This document shows, piece by piece, positions 45,926 through 49,513 of a stretch of 64,000 nucleotides of DNA (the stretch's first letter is position 1; every line of letters begins with the position of its first letter). Made by a program: the position numbers and the translations under genes. Location of the stretch: assembly GCF_053078305.1 (NCBI RefSeq), contig NZ_CP166879.1. One strand, given 5' to 3'. The notes under the pieces were generated by a model. That model was given only the letters and a program-made list of their open reading frames with translations, made no database searches and had not been told where the DNA came from.

Positions 45926-47206
45926 ATGAATAAACTCATTGAACTCAGACGCGCCAAAATGTTGGCGCTCTCTTTACTGCTTATCGCCGCTGCTACCTTT
46001 GTCGTTACGCTGTTTTTGCCGCCCAATTTTTGGGTGAGCGGCGTGAAGGCGATTGCTGAAGCGGCGATGGTCGGCGCGCTGGCGGACTGGTTTGCGGTGG
46101 TGGCGCTGTTTCGCCGCGTGCCGATACCGATTATTTCTCGTCATACGGCGATTATCCCGCGTAATAAAGACCGGATTGGCGAAAATCTCGGCCAGTTCGT
46201 GCAGGAAAAATTTCTTGATACTCAATCCCTGGTGGCATTGATTCGACGCCACGAACCGGCGTTGTTGATTGGCAACTGGTTTAGCCAGCCAGAAAACGCC
46301 CGCCGCGTTGGTCAGCATCTGTTGCAGATCATGAGTGGTTTTCTCGAATTAACTGATGATGCGCGTATTCAGCGCCTGCTTAAGCGCGCGGTCCATCGGG
46401 CGATTGATAAGGTCGATCTTTCCGGCACCAGTGCGTTGATGCTGGAGAGTATGACCAAAAACGATCGTCATCAGGTGCTGCTGGATACGCTGATCGCACA
46501 GTTGATTGCTCTTCTCCAGCGCGATAAATCGCGCAAGTTTATCGCCCAGCAAATTGTTCGCTGGCTGGAGAGTGAGCATCCACTGAAAGCCAAAATTCTC
46601 CCCACCGAATGGCTGGGCGAACATAGCGCGGAGTTGGTTTCTGACGCGGTGAATTCTTTGCTTGATGATATCAGCCGCGATCGTGCGCATCAGATCCGCC
46701 ATGCGTTTGATCGCGCCACTTTTGCCCTGATCGACAAGCTGAAAAACGATCCGGAAATGGCAGCGCGAGCCGATGCCGTAAAAAGTTATCTGAAAGAAGA
46801 TGAAGCTTTTAACCGCTATCTCAGTGAATTGTGGGGGGATTTACGGGAATGGCTGAAAGCGGATATCGACAGTGAAGATTCTCGTGTGAAAGAACGTATC
46901 GCGCGGGCGGGTCAATGGTTTGGCGAAACGTTAATTGCCGATGATGCCTTGCGGGCGTCGTTAAATGGTCATCTGGAACAAGCCGCGCACCGCGTCGCGC
47001 CTGAGTTTTCCGCATTCCTGACGCGCCACATCAGCGATACGGTAAAAAGCTGGGATGCCCGGGATATGTCGCGGCAAATAGAGTTAAATATCGGCAAAGA
47101 TCTGCAGTTTATTCGTGTCAACGGTACGCTGGTTGGCGGTTGTATTGGGCTAATTTTATATTTGCTGTCGCAGCTCCCGGCCTTGTTCCCCCTCGGCAAT
47201 TTTTAG
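45926..47206 (+). CDS. yjiN: DUF445 membrane-associated protein
   Basis: 426-aa ORF. Confidence 0.85.
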
Positions 47207-47321
47207 AAATCCATGAAAAACTAAGTGGCTAACCGCGAGAGAGATCAAATAAACCATACTAAAAGAATGGTAATAATGTGGCCTCTTTTCATTATCTCCC
47301 GTGGTACGGGGAAGGAAAATC

Positions 47322-48473
47322 ATGTCACTTGTCACCGATCTACCCGCCATTTTCGATCAGTTCTCTGAAGCTCGCCAGAAAGGCTTTCTCACCGTCATGG
47401 ATCTCAAGGAGCGCGGCATTCCGCTGGTTGGCACTTACTGCACCTTTATGCCGCAAGAGATCCCGATGGCAGCCGGTGCGGTTGTGGTTTCGCTCTGTTC
47501 CACCTCTGATGAAACCATTGAAGAAGCGGAGAAAGAACTGCCGCGCAACCTCTGCCCGCTGATTAAAAGCAGCTACGGCTTCGGCAAAACCGATAAATGC
47601 CCCTACTTCTACTTTTCGGATCTGGTGGTCGGTGAAACCACCTGCGACGGCAAAAAGAAAATGTATGAATACATGGCGGAGTTTAAGCCTGTTCATGTGA
47701 TGCAGCTGCCGAACAGCGTTAAGGACGATGCCTCGCGTGCATTGTGGAAAGCCGAGATGCTGCGCTTGCAAAAAACGGTAGAAGAACGTTTTGGGCACGA
47801 GATTAGCGAAGATGCTCTGCGCGATGCTATTGCGCTGAAAAACCGCGAACGTCGCGCACTGGCCAATTTTTATCATCTTGGGCAGTTAAATCCTCCGGCG
47901 CTTAGCGGCAGCGACATTCTGAAAGTGGTTTACGGCGCAACCTTCCGGTTCGATAAAGAGGCGTTGATCAATGAACTGGACGCGATGACCGCCCGCATTC
48001 GTCAGCAGTGGGAAGAAGGCCAGCGACTGGACCCGCGTCCGCGCATTTTAATCACCGGCTGCCCGATTGGCGGCGCAGCAGAGAAAGTGGTGCGCGCGAT
48101 TGAAGAGAATGGCGGCTGGGTTGTCGGTTATGAAAACTGCACCGGGGCGAAAGCGACCGAGCAATGCGTGGCAGAAACGGGCGATGTCTACGACGCGCTG
48201 GCGGATAAATATCTGGCGATTGGCTGCTCCTGTGTTTCGCCGAACGATCAGCGCCTGAAAATGCTCAGCCAGATGGTGGAAGAATATCAGGTCGATGGCG
48301 TAGTTGATGTGATTTTGCAGGCGTGCCATACCTACGCGGTGGAATCGCTGGCAATTAAACGTCATGTGCGTCAGCAGCACAACATTCCTTATATCGCTAT
48401 TGAAACAGACTACTCCACCTCAGATGTCGGGCAGCTCAGTACCCGTGTCGCGGCCTTTATTGAGATGCTGTAA
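47322..48473 (+). CDS. yjiM: 2-hydroxyacyl-CoA dehydratase (HgdB/HadC)-like protein
   Basis: 383 aa from MSLVTDLPAIF; conserved Cys residues typical of the dehydratase component. Confidence 0.85.
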   Translation: MSLVTDLPAIFDQFSEARQKGFLTVMDLKERGIPLVGTYCTFMPQEIPMAAGAVVVSLCSTSDETIEEAEKELPRNLCPLIKSSYGFGKTDKCPYFYFSDLVVGETTCDGKKKMYEYMAEFKPVHVMQLPNSVKDDASRALWKAEMLRLQKTVEERFGHEISEDALRDAIALKNRERRALANFYHLGQLNPPALSGSDILKVVYGATFRFDKEALINELDAMTARIRQQWEEGQRLDPRPRILITGCPIGGAAEKVVRAIEENGGWVVGYENCTGAKATEQCVAETGDVYDALADKYLAIGCSCVSPNDQRLKMLSQMVEEYQVDGVVDVILQACHTYAVESLAIKRHVRQQHNIPYIAIETDYSTSDVGQLSTRVAAFIEML

Positions 48474-48476
48474 GGA

Positions 48477-49250
48477 GTGGCAGTGACATATTCGATTGGC
48501 ATTGATTCTGGTTCTACCGCCACCAAAGGGATCTTACTGGCAGACGGCGTGATTACGCGCCGTTTCCTCGTTCCAACACCCTTTCGTCCGGCAACAGCAA
48601 TTACTGAAGCCTGGGAAACTCTGCGCGAAGGGTTAGAGACAACGCCGTTTCTGACGCTCACCGGCTACGGGCGGCAACTGGTGGATTTTGCCGATAAACA
48701 AGTGACGGAAATCTCCTGTCACGGGCTGGGCGCACGGTTTCTTGCGCCAGCAACGCGCGCGGTAATCGACATCGGTGGTCAGGACAGCAAAGTGATTCAG
48801 CTTGATGATGACGGTAACCTGTGCGATTTCCTGATGAATGACAAATGCGCGGCGGGCACCGGGCGTTTCCTGGAGGTGATCTCGCGCACGCTTGGCACCA
48901 GCGTCGAGCAGCTCGACAGCATTACTGAAAATGTCACACCGCACGCCATCACGAGTATGTGCACAGTGTTTGCTGAATCAGAAGTGATCAGCCTGCGCTC
49001 AGCGGGCGTCGCGCCAGAAGCGATTCTCGCCGGAGTGATTAACGCGATGGCGCGGCGGAGTGCCAATTTCATTGCTCGTCTCTCCTGTGAAGCGCCGATT
49101 CTGTTTACTGGTGGCGTTAGTCATTGCCAGACGTTTGCCCGGATGCTGGAATCTCACCTGCGAATGCCGGTAAATACCCATCCTGATGCGCAATTTGCTG
49201 GCGCAATTGGCGCGGCGGTAATTGGTCAACGAGTGAGGACACGCCGATGA
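48477..49250 (+). CDS. yjiL: BadF/BadG/BcrA/BcrD-type ATPase (dehydratase activator-like)
   Basis: 257-aa ORF (GTG start) with acetate/sugar-kinase-fold ATPase motif IGIDSGSTATK. Confidence 0.85.
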   Translation: MAVTYSIGIDSGSTATKGILLADGVITRRFLVPTPFRPATAITEAWETLREGLETTPFLTLTGYGRQLVDFADKQVTEISCHGLGARFLAPATRAVIDIGGQDSKVIQLDDDGNLCDFLMNDKCAAGTGRFLEVISRTLGTSVEQLDSITENVTPHAITSMCTVFAESEVISLRSAGVAPEAILAGVINAMARRSANFIARLSCEAPILFTGGVSHCQTFARMLESHLRMPVNTHPDAQFAGAIGAAVIGQRVRTRR

Positions 49251-49513
49251 AAGAGTTTTTATTTTTATTTCACTCCACGGTCGGCGTCATACAAACCCGC
49301 AAGGCGTTGCAGGCAGCGGGCATGACTTTTCGCGTCAGCGATATTCCCCGTGATTTACGCGGCGGCTGCGGGTTATGCATTTGGCTGACCTGTCCCCCCG
49401 GCGAGGAAATACAATGGGTGATCCCTGGGCAAACCGAAGCGATATATTGCCAGCAGGGCAGCGACTGGCAGTGCGTGGTGCATTACGATGCAGAAGCGTC
49501 AACCAGGCAATAG
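49247..49513 (+). CDS. small Cys-containing protein (DUF3343-like), translationally coupled to yjiL
   Basis: 88-aa ORF whose ATG overlaps the yjiL stop (ATGA). Confidence 0.6.
   Translation: MKEFLFLFHSTVGVIQTRKALQAAGMTFRVSDIPRDLRGGCGLCIWLTCPPGEEIQWVIPGQTEAIYCQQGSDWQCVVHYDAEASTRQ

Follow-up and report, generated by a model that had tools for sequence, protein, structure and literature searches.

Escherichia coli yjiM-yjiL-ytiA as a probable double-cubane cluster protein system with a small accessory protein and a possible link to sulfur or selenium

Known systems

The nitrogenase-like, ATP-driven reductases known as double-cubane cluster proteins (DCCPs) form a class of recent discovery, and the physiological substrate of every one of them is unknown (PMC7317905, PMC11971306). 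The known pair closest to the locus described here is DCCP/DCCP-R of Carboxydothermus hydrogenoformans (CHY_0487/CHY_0488; PDB 6ENO, 7YYL/7YZM/7YZQ), in which a homodimer is served by one ATPase reductase, with no need of a second dehydratase subunit or of a CoA-transferase (PMC7317905, PMC9351452). The 2-hydroxyacyl-CoA dehydratases (HadBC with HadI, PDB 3O3M/4EHT; HgdAB with HgdC, PDB 1HUX), both components of which belong to the same superfamilies, are alpha/beta heterodimers in which each subunit has one three-cysteine [4Fe-4S]-type cluster; their substrates are CoA esters, and their genes are accompanied by those of CoA-transferases. The class I benzoyl-CoA reductases (BzdNOPQ, PDB 8S02; MbdNOPQ, PDB 9GAI) comprise four subunits, and although BzdN also carries an [8Fe-9S] double cubane (PMC11971306), this cluster only stores electrons or relays them to a catalytic [4Fe-4S]-OH2 centre in a second subunit. 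The nitrogenase-like methylthio-alkane reductase MarBHDK offers a functional analogy only, as an ATP-driven two-component reductase of low potential; its NifHDK-type fold and cofactor are unrelated, and its demonstrated C-S cleavage has no counterpart shown for any DCCP.

A connection between DCCPs and selenium has been drawn repeatedly (PMC5322559, PMC10418091, 10.1101/2022.07.06.499078). DCCP, activase and DUF3343 genes are found together in selenium-metabolism neighbourhoods, namely Slackia Shel_25420-25470, the mlp clusters accompanied by DCCP, DCCPR and Sec lyase genes, and the SAO loci. Whereas MarBHDK adjoins mlp corrinoid methyltransferase clusters of a non-selenium clade, the DCCP and its reductase adjoin the mlp clusters that bear selenium genes, and they have been "provisionally linked to selenium metabolism" (PMC10418091). 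Moreover, 955 of the 970 high-scoring DCCPs are encoded in SelD-encoding genomes (bioRxiv 10.1101/2022.07.06.499078).

Organisation and conservation of the locus

Positions 45926-49513 of the window, the whole 64-kb stretch of DNA that was analysed, hold four intact plus-strand genes, yjiN-yjiM-yjiL-ytiA, placed as in the earlier note on this DNA, which had read them as a 2-hydroxyacyl-CoA-dehydratase-like module. yjiN (45926-47206) encodes a DUF445 membrane protein of 426 aa. yjiM (47322-48473) encodes a short "class II" DCCP of 383 aa, the predicted [8Fe-9S] catalytic component, and yjiL (48483-49250) a 255-aa ATPase with a predicted ASKHA fold and [4Fe-4S] cluster, of the archerase or DCCP-R type. 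The two starts were preferred over the first in-frame codons, at 47301 and 48477 respectively, because the RefSeq annotation of the same locus and the ribosome-binding sites agree on them: the ATG at 47322 lies 5-6 nt downstream of GGAAGGA, and the GTG at 48483 lies 6 nt downstream of AGGAG and 10 nt past the stop codon of yjiM. ytiA (49247-49513), annotated as a DUF3343 "putative Se/S carrier", encodes 88 aa here and 85 aa in K-12. It is translationally coupled to yjiL through an ATGA overlap (49247-49250), which had been pointed out in the earlier note and is real; the ytiA ATG begins at 49247, the yjiL TGA occupies 49248-49250 (context ...CGCCGATGAAAG...), and a GAGGA Shine-Dalgarno sequence lies 7 nt upstream.

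The module was found in 5322-5386 of 5426 complete E. coli genomes, the stretch itself in 5386 of them. Values of dN/dS for all four genes range from 0.05 to 0.09 against a K-12-like strain (yjiN 0.05, ytiA 0.09), and from 0.04 to 0.10 when the comparison with Citrobacter is included. The genes are real, far beyond chance, and the locus is under purifying selection.

Assignment of YjiM to the DCCPs

The family matches that the earlier note had proposed to look for were all obtained, and the superfamily resemblance that it described is sound. YjiM matches Pfam HGD-D (4e-122) and passes the NCBIfam DCCP equivalog NF040772 with 532.1 bits against a cutoff of 350, a model that was itself constructed so as to include YjiM (bioRxiv 10.1101/2022.07.06.499078). 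Its best PDB matches are the DCCP entries 6ENO/7YYL (E 4e-75, residues 26-383, about 40% identity), far ahead of BzdN (3e-19), MbdN (5e-18) and HadC (9e-14). The seven family-conserved cysteines are all kept in YjiM (C40, C59, C78, C108, C273, C302, C335); in an alignment of 41 DCCP representatives with 30-49% identity, their columns hold cysteine in 38 to 41 sequences and align with the cysteines of 6ENO. The motif printed in the literature, CX19CX18-19CX29CX166-170CX32-34CX32C, fits neither the 6ENO fragment nor YjiM, and none of the 41 representatives either. YjiM conforms to the spacing observed empirically, X18, X17-19, X28-29, X157-168, X28-33 and X32; the X28-29 interval has one exception, X35, among the 38 sequences scored.

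The models of other identities gave scores far below their cutoffs. YjiM scored 95.7 bits as HadC (equivalog cutoff 700), 20.4 as HadB (750) and 78.6 as BzdN (453.8), and failed the BcrB/C equivalog models by a wide margin (58.9 bits as BcrC, cutoff 421), while YjiL scored 159 bits as a BzdQ-type protein (380). The four-subunit set of class I benzoyl-CoA reductases is absent, since the window contains one HGD-D-type and one ATPase-type gene and does not encode the second subunit that would hold the catalytic centre.

YjiM is thus a member of the HGD-D/BCR-HAD superfamily and not a lone dehydratase subunit. Its DCCP identity is already known, since RefSeq and two papers name it so; in one of these, it appears as a putative DCCP of class II that is associated with YjiL (PMC7317905). 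The cluster type, the ATP coupling and the homodimeric state are predictions by homology, the last of which fits the presence of a single HGD-D gene in the window. In the papers searched, no data for YjiM were found on an [8Fe-9S] cluster, on its ATP-dependent reduction by the partner YjiL, or on the reduction of acetylene, azide or hydrazine.

YjiL and the completeness of the module

YjiL matches Pfam BcrAD_BadFG (9e-77) and passes TIGR00241 (364 bits, cutoff 125). Its PDB matches comprise HadI (1.7e-52), HgdC (1.1e-51) and DCCP-R (7YYL, 6.5e-46), as well as MbdQ and MbdP, and its Cys122 and Cys160 align with the cluster-binding cysteines of HadI, HgdC and DCCP-R. These similarities suggest that YjiL acts as an ATP-driven electron donor, that is, an archerase-type activator. 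Of 83 DCCP loci, 58 have an activase gene, mostly beside the DCCP gene, and natural single-chain fusions of DCCP and activase exist.

The earlier note had correctly remarked that no second dehydratase subunit and no CoA-transferase are adjacent: a search of six-frame ORFs with YjiM and the family profile (E<=10) detected no second HGD-D paralogue in the whole window, and the RefSeq records of this locus in E. coli show no annotated CoA-transferase up to 6 kb away. Its conclusion of an incomplete module, as measured against characterised systems, is nevertheless wrong, since DCCPs are homodimers with one ATPase reductase and no CoA-transferase, and DCCP/DCCP-R is the right comparator. Judged by its gene content, the module is complete and of a kind already known. 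It shares with the Carboxydothermus pair the seven cysteines and an adjacent ASKHA [4Fe-4S] ATPase with both cluster cysteines. It differs at the N-terminus of YjiM, where about 36 residues and with them the channel-closing helices are missing (PMC7317905), and in the addition of the coupled DUF3343 gene, which Firmicute homologues of the Carboxydothermus protein DCCP_Ch (52-55% identity) also have.

The fourth gene is a different matter. YjiN matches Pfam DUF445 (1.3e-119), and a DUF445 gene adjoins the DCCP gene in only 7 of the 83 loci, all of them enterobacterial; it is absent from this position in Cedecea, in Hafnia and in all 74 non-enteric loci. Given this restricted adjacency and the promoter-like region that yjiM has of its own, the inclusion of yjiN in the module, as the earlier note had it, is unsupported, and yjiN is probably a lineage-specific neighbour and not a functional part.

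YtiA and the association with sulfur and selenium genes

YtiA matches PF11823, Se_S_carrier (formerly DUF3343), at 3.6e-13 (49.2 bits, cutoff 25). The family name rests on gene-neighbourhood inference only, and the conserved cysteine of the family was noted in the same study (PMC5322559). YtiA has five cysteines (C41, C44, C49, C68, C76). All 30 homologues compared, from enterics and Firmicutes, have Cys41-Gly42, within P-x-P-R-x-(L/I)-S-x-G-C-G. An AF2 model (pLDDT 87) predicts a ferredoxin-like fold in which a loop carries Cys41; no solved relative was found.

The neighbourhood analysis covered 83 loci, 74 of them non-enteric, and used the 80 best hits of one scan. DUF3343 genes occur within 10 kb in 19 of the 74 non-enteric loci, where 11 of 22 are immediate neighbours of DCCP or activase genes; the expected number is 0.53, and 2000 randomisations gave at most 4, in a set whose loci are phylogenetically clumped (L024 and L077, for instance, lie on one contig). 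Gene orders vary between loci, and the adjacency holds also for the long paralogues close to DCCP_Ch. Recurrent neighbours include a cysteine desulfurase of the EF2568 type (TIGR01977, 497 bits against 377), selenium_YedF (TIGR03527, 210 against 110), a LysR regulator whose best match is a selenium-metabolism model (170 bits, under the cutoff of 250), and MtaA-like, corrinoid and RACo genes. We found DCCP, activase and DUF3343 genes grouped again in Clostridia, Peptoniphilaceae, Halanaerobium and others, and the order DCCP, activase, cysteine desulfurase, DUF3343, YedF was found in at least six Firmicute loci; an earlier study described the same neighbourhood in Slackia and interpreted it as selenium metabolism (PMC5322559). 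Against a link to sulfur or selenium, only a third of the non-enteric loci (24 of 74) have any sulfur- or selenium-trafficking gene within 10 kb, and the E. coli locus is a three-gene core, from which the EF2568-type desulfurase, the long YedF, LysR_Sec and the corrinoid methyltransferase are absent. The Firmicute neighbourhoods support the published idea that DCCPs may take part in sulfur or selenium metabolism, with YtiA as a putative carrier acting through Cys41.

Proposed mechanism and alternative readings

We consider it likely that yjiM-yjiL-ytiA constitutes the two-component DCCP system of E. coli together with a small accessory protein, yjiN standing outside it. Exhaustion of oxygen would lead to expression from the module's own FNR-type promoter. 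By analogy with the structurally characterised Carboxydothermus pair, the YjiL dimer, holding a [4Fe-4S] cluster between its subunits through Cys122 and Cys160, would be reduced under anoxia by ferredoxin or flavodoxin. Reduced YjiL would then bind MgATP and dock on the YjiM homodimer, and the cycle of ATP hydrolysis would push an electron uphill into the [8Fe-9S] double-cubane cluster, held by three cysteines per domain (most likely C40, C78, C108 and C273, C302, C335), with C59 beside it. YjiM could thereafter reduce its substrate at a very negative potential. With less assurance than for this core mechanism, the gene neighbourhoods suggest that the substrate is a sulfur- or selenium-containing species: Cys41 of YtiA may deliver it to the YjiM cluster, or accept sulfur or selenium released from the cluster. 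Such a species could be a persulfide or perselenide bound to a carrier, Se(0), or a small organo-sulfur or organo-selenium compound undergoing reductive cleavage of an S-S, Se-Se or C-S/Se bond.

Tentatively, and as a possibility more than an expectation, it can be hypothesised that YtiA is an integral third component of DCCP systems, whose Cys41 loop would offer the open Fe pair of [8Fe-9S] an adduct in the form of a persulfide, a perselenide or an organo-S/Se group. The DCCP would then be the missing ATP-driven reductase of very low potential by which anaerobes set selenide (or sulfide) free for SelD and related pathways, or by which C-Se or Se-Se bonds are cleaved. If this were true, E. coli yjiML-ytiA would provide a genetically tractable model towards the long-sought physiological substrate of DCCPs.

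The same DUF3343, desulfurase and YedF neighbourhoods would also suit a maturation factor, a reading that we regard as rather unlikely. YtiA would deliver the bridging mu2-sulfide to the two cubanes of the DCCP, in concert with YedF and a cysteine desulfurase or Sec lyase at loci that have them. A relay from a desulfurase through TusA/DsrE to a small carrier is typical of sulfur insertion pathways, which counts in favour of this role, and [8Fe-9S] needs one sulfur beyond two standard cubanes (PMC7317905). Selenide as the bridging atom is a speculation of Haft, who lists a selenium-bridged cofactor as a formal possibility explaining the link between DCCPs and SelD (10.1101/2022.07.06.499078). 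Against a maturation role, 55 of the 74 non-enteric loci have no DUF3343 gene within 10 kb, and the coupling to yjiL may suggest stoichiometric and not catalytic amounts of YtiA. DCCP_Ch made in E. coli carried [8Fe-9S] in the crystal (PMC7317905), an argument tempered by the presence of ytiA in that host.

It is unlikely, in turn, that the module is an atypical or incomplete 2-hydroxyacyl-CoA dehydratase, or another radical enzyme of CoA esters, in which YjiM would act on an acyl-CoA after one-electron activation by YjiL. The HGD-D and BcrAD_BadFG matches are compatible with such an enzyme, as are HadI and HgdC as the best PDB matches of YjiL, but activators of the HgdC/HadI type are common to dehydratase, DCCP and BCR systems and hence do not discriminate. 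A further argument concerns the substrate channel: residue 26 of YjiM aligns with residue 62 of DCCP_Ch, and since the N-terminal helices that narrow the DCCP_Ch channel are missing, the Dobbek group suggested that the shorter YjiM could accommodate a CoA ester or some other large substrate, a CoA ester being "more likely" (PMC7317905). Conversely, YjiM is a single gene product with a double set of cluster cysteines and not the three-cysteine set, it lies under the HadB, HadC and BzdN cutoffs, and no gene for a second subunit is present in the window. CoA-transferase, acyl-CoA dehydrogenase or similar genes are neither nearby in E. coli nor among the recurrent neighbour families of the 74 non-enteric loci.

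That YtiA is a small redox protein supplying YjiL with electrons, by way of a dithiol or of an Fe-S cluster bridged between subunits and formed by the enterobacterial C41-x2-C44 (and C49), is very unlikely. The invariant C41-G-L-C44 of enterobacterial YtiA, the overlap with yjiL and the modelled ferredoxin-like fold would suit it, but Cys41 alone is kept family-wide, Cys44 being missing from most Firmicute homologues, and archerases are normally reduced by an ordinary ferredoxin or flavodoxin (PMC7317905). That the module is a decaying, functionless remnant of a larger Firmicute-type cluster, as the missing desulfurase and YedF partners and the sole known phenotype (an mdtM-linked peptide-uptake effect of the "yjiL-mdtM cluster") might suggest, is hardly credible for intact ORFs that are carried by nearly all E. 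coli genomes at low dN/dS, with all predicted catalytic cysteines conserved and with regulated anaerobic expression described in the literature.

A DCCP system with a small accessory protein remains our preferred reading. Since the DCCP locus of the E. coli core genome has already been recognised, it is ordinary as a discovery; the practical gain is a complete E. coli system with anaerobic expression, a putative promoter of its own and a coupled DUF3343 gene. The "unknown substrate" of the earlier note, a description that still holds, can now be recast as a sulfur/selenium hypothesis open to testing in the most favourable genetic model there is.

Promoter and leader of yjiM

The literature places yjiM in Fnr regulon lists and reports its induction on O2 depletion. 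Upstream of yjiM, a conserved class-II FNR-like promoter architecture is seen (47235-47277, plus strand), which points to a putative FNR-type promoter belonging to yjiM itself. In E. coli, the FNR-like site (47235-47248) is degenerate, with three mismatches and the right half ATCAA alone intact, and is followed by a -10 element AATAAT (47272-47277). At the same position, Citrobacter has TTGTTGCACATCAA, with one mismatch to TTGAT-N4-ATCAA and its centre some 41.5 nt upstream of the start of transcription that a TATAAT box implies; the Cedecea site has two mismatches.

The yjiM leader (47298-47316, plus strand) is also conserved. No Rfam family matches it, and its folding energy is unexceptional (z = -0.7). 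It contains CCCGT-GGT-ACGGG (47298-47310), a hairpin of 5 bp or palindrome that adjoins the Shine-Dalgarno sequence GGAAGGA (47310-47316), and this hairpin is kept in six genera, with a compensatory CCCGG/CCGGG pairing in Hafnia.

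YjiM and YjiL as a probable double-cubane cluster system

The window belongs to the E. coli chromosome, and positions 45926-49900 are found at 95-99% identity in 5386 of the 5426 complete E. coli genomes. The segment 45926-49513 is filled by four ORFs on one strand (+), annotated in RefSeq as follows: yjiN (45926-47206), a 'DUF445 domain-containing protein'; yjiM (ATG 47322 to 48473), a 'double-cubane-cluster-containing anaerobic reductase'; yjiL (GTG 48483 to 49250), a 'putative 2-hydroxyacyl-CoA dehydratase activator YjiL'; and ytiA (49247-49513), an 88-aa 'DUF3343 domain-containing protein' or 'putative Se/S carrier protein'. 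The starts of yjiM and yjiL are those supported by RefSeq and by a ribosome-binding site, the first in-frame starts lying upstream at 47301 and 48477, respectively. What the earlier note had observed here is confirmed, including the ATGA overlap that couples ytiA to yjiL, and its interpretation as an incomplete 2-hydroxyacyl-CoA-dehydratase-like module is partly supported.

At the level of sequence, YjiM is a double-cubane cluster protein (DCCP), passing the NCBIfam equivalog model 'double-cubane-cluster-containing anaerobic reductase' (NF040772; 532 bits, cutoff 350). The closest solved structure by a wide margin is the DCCP of Carboxydothermus hydrogenoformans (6ENO, 7YYL; E 4e-75 over residues 26-383), followed by BzdN (3e-19), MbdN (5e-18) and HadC (9e-14). 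The alignment of YjiM with 40 full-length representatives (30-49% identity) retrieved by exhaustive search contains exactly seven conserved Cys columns, with Cys in 38-41 of the 41 sequences. All seven are filled by YjiM (C40, C59, C78, C108, C273, C302 and C335) and aligned with the Cys of 6ENO; the choice of six as cluster ligands is based on a review naming Cys94 as the non-ligand and on the alignment. Taken as a literal pattern, the seven-Cys DCCP motif printed in two papers, CX19CX18-19CX29CX166-170CX32-34CX32C, matched none of the 41 representatives, including YjiM, nor the 6ENO fragment, and the alignment columns were therefore used instead. The observed spacing, which YjiM fits, is X18, X17-19, X28-29, X157-168, X28-33 and X32. 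YjiL matches HadI, HgdC, MbdQ and DCCP-R, the ATPase reductase of DCCP, with E values of 1e-52 to 1e-46, and its Cys122 and Cys160 occupy both [4Fe-4S]-ligating positions in the alignment. A functional link between YjiM and YjiL is supported by single-chain DCCP-activase fusions, which occur naturally.

A DCCP is a homodimer, each monomer of which holds one [8Fe-9S] cluster. It is reduced in an ATP-dependent manner by a homodimeric [4Fe-4S] ATPase, and it requires no CoA-transferase and no second subunit (PMC7317905, PMC9351452). No second HGD-D-type gene is present anywhere in the 64-kb window. The module had been regarded as incomplete relative to characterised systems; because DCCPs need neither of the two components, yjiM-yjiL-ytiA is complete when compared with the characterised system that applies to it. 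A review describes YjiM of E. coli, in association with YjiL, as a probable 'class II' DCCP, devoid of the channel-closing N-terminal helices (PMC7317905), and the alignment of its residue 26 to residue 62 of the C. hydrogenoformans protein is consistent with the missing helices. The identification of YjiM as a DCCP is already in the literature and in RefSeq, NF040772 having been built in the Haft preprint, which cites YjiM as a member (10.1101/2022.07.06.499078). The locus is a recognised member of a known system type. No functional study of YjiM, YjiL or YtiA was found in the literature searched.

Other domain arrangements were encountered. Some metagenomic proteins consist of a DCCP fused to an activase, or of two tandem HGD-D domains. 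In the 722-aa representative P0122, a YjiM-like DCCP domain (52% identity over residues 1-383) is followed by a PucR-type helix-turn-helix at the C-terminus, and the DCCP-PucR-type fusion is present at two loci of Dorea (L076, 5309-7450; L077, 7151-9319); it may be a transcription regulator with the DCCP domain as sensor. YjiM shares 60-66% identity with proteins from Clostridia, Enterococcus, Listeria and Agrilactobacillus (L009-L020), an identity that is high across phyla and suggests, on sequence grounds, horizontal transfer between Firmicutes and Enterobacteriaceae.

Sulfur and selenium genes beside DCCP genes

The co-occurrence check put forward in the earlier note was run on 83 loci and came out in favour of an association. 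These are the best 80 genome loci with YjiM-like proteins (49-96% identity; mostly Clostridia, Enterococcus, Listeria and Peptoniphilaceae, plus Enterobacteriaceae), two RefSeq E. coli copies and the window, analysed by our own ORF calls and iterated profiles. An activase gene occurs in 58 of the 83, mostly adjacent to the DCCP gene. DUF3343 is represented by 22 genes in 19 of the 74 non-enteric loci, and 11 of the 22 lie immediately next to a DCCP or activase gene (<=150 nt, same strand) against 0.53 expected; randomised placement within the same loci yielded a maximum of 4 in 2000 trials, and the adjacency is thus non-random. With M for DCCP, L for activase and D for DUF3343, the gene orders vary (M-L-D, D-L-M, M-D-L, M-M-D-L). 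Five loci contain a second, longer DCCP paralogue, 52-55% identical to that of C. hydrogenoformans, with a DUF3343 gene immediately after each, and the association therefore covers both DCCP classes.

Other recurrent genes of the non-enteric loci include an EF2568-type cysteine desulfurase in 17 (TIGR01977, 497 bits vs 377), a long YedF in 12 (TIGR03527, 210 bits vs 110) and a LysR in 7, which scores highest with the LysR model for selenium metabolism but stays under the cutoff. At least six loci show the gene order DCCP, activase, desulfurase, DUF3343, YedF, and 24 of the 74 carry one or more of the three genes for S/Se trafficking. These data reproduce and extend published statements on DCCPs and selenium, namely that 955 of 970 high-scoring DCCPs are found in SelD-encoding genomes (10.1101/2022.07.06.499078) and that DCCP and its reductase are 'provisionally linked to selenium metabolism', beside mlp methyltransferase clusters (PMC10418091). 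The contigs of the distant 50%-cluster representatives P0172 and P0221 (4-7 kb) have no informative neighbours.

Genes for an MtaA-like methyltransferase (9 non-enteric loci; Pfam URO-D 1.9e-39, all MtaA-type NCBIfam models below cutoff), a corrinoid protein (8; B12-binding 6.2e-30, B12-binding_2 2e-18) and RACo (6; RACo_C_ter 3.6e-74, Raco_middle 5.1e-54) lie directly beside YjiM-like DCCP genes, for example at loci L039, L061 and L015. YjiR (MocR-type) seemed at first to recur among the non-enteric loci, but its cluster had taken in class I/II aminotransferases without an HTH through their common aminotransferase domain, and YjiR was rejected as a conserved regulator.

YtiA and the proposed mechanism

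Enterobacteriaceae have conserved YtiA homologues, in which RGGC41GLC44 is invariant. Among 30 enteric and Firmicute homologues, only F8, C41 and G42 are invariant, the latter two in the context P-x-P-R-x-L/I-S-x-G-C-G. The AlphaFold2 model (pLDDT 87) predicts a ferredoxin-like fold (beta-alpha-beta / beta-alpha-beta-beta), in which Cys41 lies on the loop connecting strands 2 and 3; neither sequence nor fold searches gave a specific solved relative. The Pfam name 'Se/S carrier' derives from comparative genomics, in which DUF3343 genes lie beside Sec-lyase-like and YedF genes; in the Slackia case of that study, the neighbours also include '2-hydroxyglutaryl-CoA dehydratase subunits' and a 'CoA-substrate-specific enzyme activase' (PMC5322559).

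By homology, reduced ferredoxin or flavodoxin would deliver an electron to the [4Fe-4S] cluster of YjiL, from which ATP-driven transfer would take it to the [8Fe-9S] cluster of YjiM, and this cluster would reduce the substrate at very low potential. The gene neighbourhoods suggest, less strongly than homology does for the preceding steps, that the substrate or product may be a sulfur or selenium species on Cys41 of YtiA. The potential of the Se(0)/selenide couple lies considerably below that of the S(0)/sulfide couple, which would be a reason for boosting the reductase with ATP. Nitrogenase-like methylthio-alkane reductases are located beside non-selenium mlp clusters, in parallel to DCCP and its reductase beside mlp clusters, and by this analogy the chemistry could alternatively be a reductive cleavage of C-S or C-Se bonds. 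The value of the analysis is that it narrows the S/Se hypothesis for an enzyme of the E. coli core genome to a form that can be tested.

Less probably, YtiA might instead supply the bridging sulfide (or selenide) as the cluster matures, a role that draws on the same DCCP and desulfurase neighbours as the proposed sulfur or selenium species on Cys41. Less likely still is an electron carrier, for which the predicted ferredoxin-like fold has to be weighed against a single invariant Cys in the 30 homologues. That YjiM acts on a CoA-ester is the reading nearest to the dehydratase-like one of the earlier note, and all the Pfam families foreseen there were matched (HGD-D, BcrAD_BadFG and PF11823, the renamed DUF3343). 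The family-level part of that reading holds; its specific part probably does not, YjiM passing the DCCP model and falling far below the NCBIfam cutoffs for HadC (96 bits, cutoff 700), HadB (20, cutoff 750), BzdN (79, cutoff 454) and BcrC (59, cutoff 421). A decaying remnant is at odds with the purifying selection on yjiN, yjiM, yjiL and ytiA (dN/dS 0.05-0.09 against a K-12-like strain; against Citrobacter, 0.04 for yjiM and 0.10 for ytiA).

yjiN and the putative yjiM promoter region

A DUF445 gene accompanies the yjiM-type gene in only 7 of the 83 loci, all enterobacterial, and is absent from this position in Cedecea, Hafnia and all 74 non-enteric loci. In Citrobacter, TTGTTGCACATCAA lies ~87 nt before the yjiM ATG, with one mismatch to the FNR consensus, and its centre lies ~41.5 nt upstream of the start predicted from a TATAAT box; the FNR-like site of Cedecea has two mismatches, and E. 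coli retains the ATCAA half (47235-47248) and a -10 AATAAT (47272-47277). Consensus scans of E. coli alone for promoters, terminators and FNR, CRP or ArcA sites gave nothing above chance, and the putative FNR-type promoter is visible only through cross-genus comparison. Published data place yjiM in the Fnr regulon and report its induction on oxygen depletion. From the DUF445 distribution and the promoter-like region of yjiM, we conclude that yjiN, formerly counted in the module, is a lineage-specific neighbour.

The yjiM leader (47298-47316, TCTCCCGTGnnACGGGGAAGGAAAATCATG) is conserved in six genera, at the same position in L003, L005, L006, L007 and L008. It contains a 5-bp hairpin or palindrome that abuts the Shine-Dalgarno sequence and shows a compensatory change in Hafnia (CCCGG/CCGGG), and could be a translational hairpin or an operator; its fold energy is unremarkable (z = -0.7) and it matches no Rfam family.

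Flanking genes and the adjoining island

The Rpn-family recombination-promoting nuclease gene rpnD / yjiP-yjiQ (43242-44186, - strand) is an intact 314-aa ORF in the window; in the K-12-like record L001 the gene has an internal stop and is labelled a pseudogene. A 'yjiL-mdtM gene cluster' phenotype, the uptake of proline-rich peptides, is credited in the literature to the transporter MdtM. Between ytiA and a homologue of the SdiA-regulated yjiK lies a low-GC island (49514-52266; 31-40% GC vs ~55% in the flanks), present in 637 of 5426 E. coli genomes. Its junction falls at ~49457-49487, inside ytiA, whose last 15-20 codons are replaced by the island (88 aa in the window vs 85 aa in K-12). The island gene at 49826-52000 encodes a 724-aa pentapeptide-repeat protein, to which the annotation of O157 strains gives the name T3SS effector EspX6. 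It has internal KD-repeats and DSTDKQAN-type repeats of variable number; the homologue in strain A16 has 778 aa.
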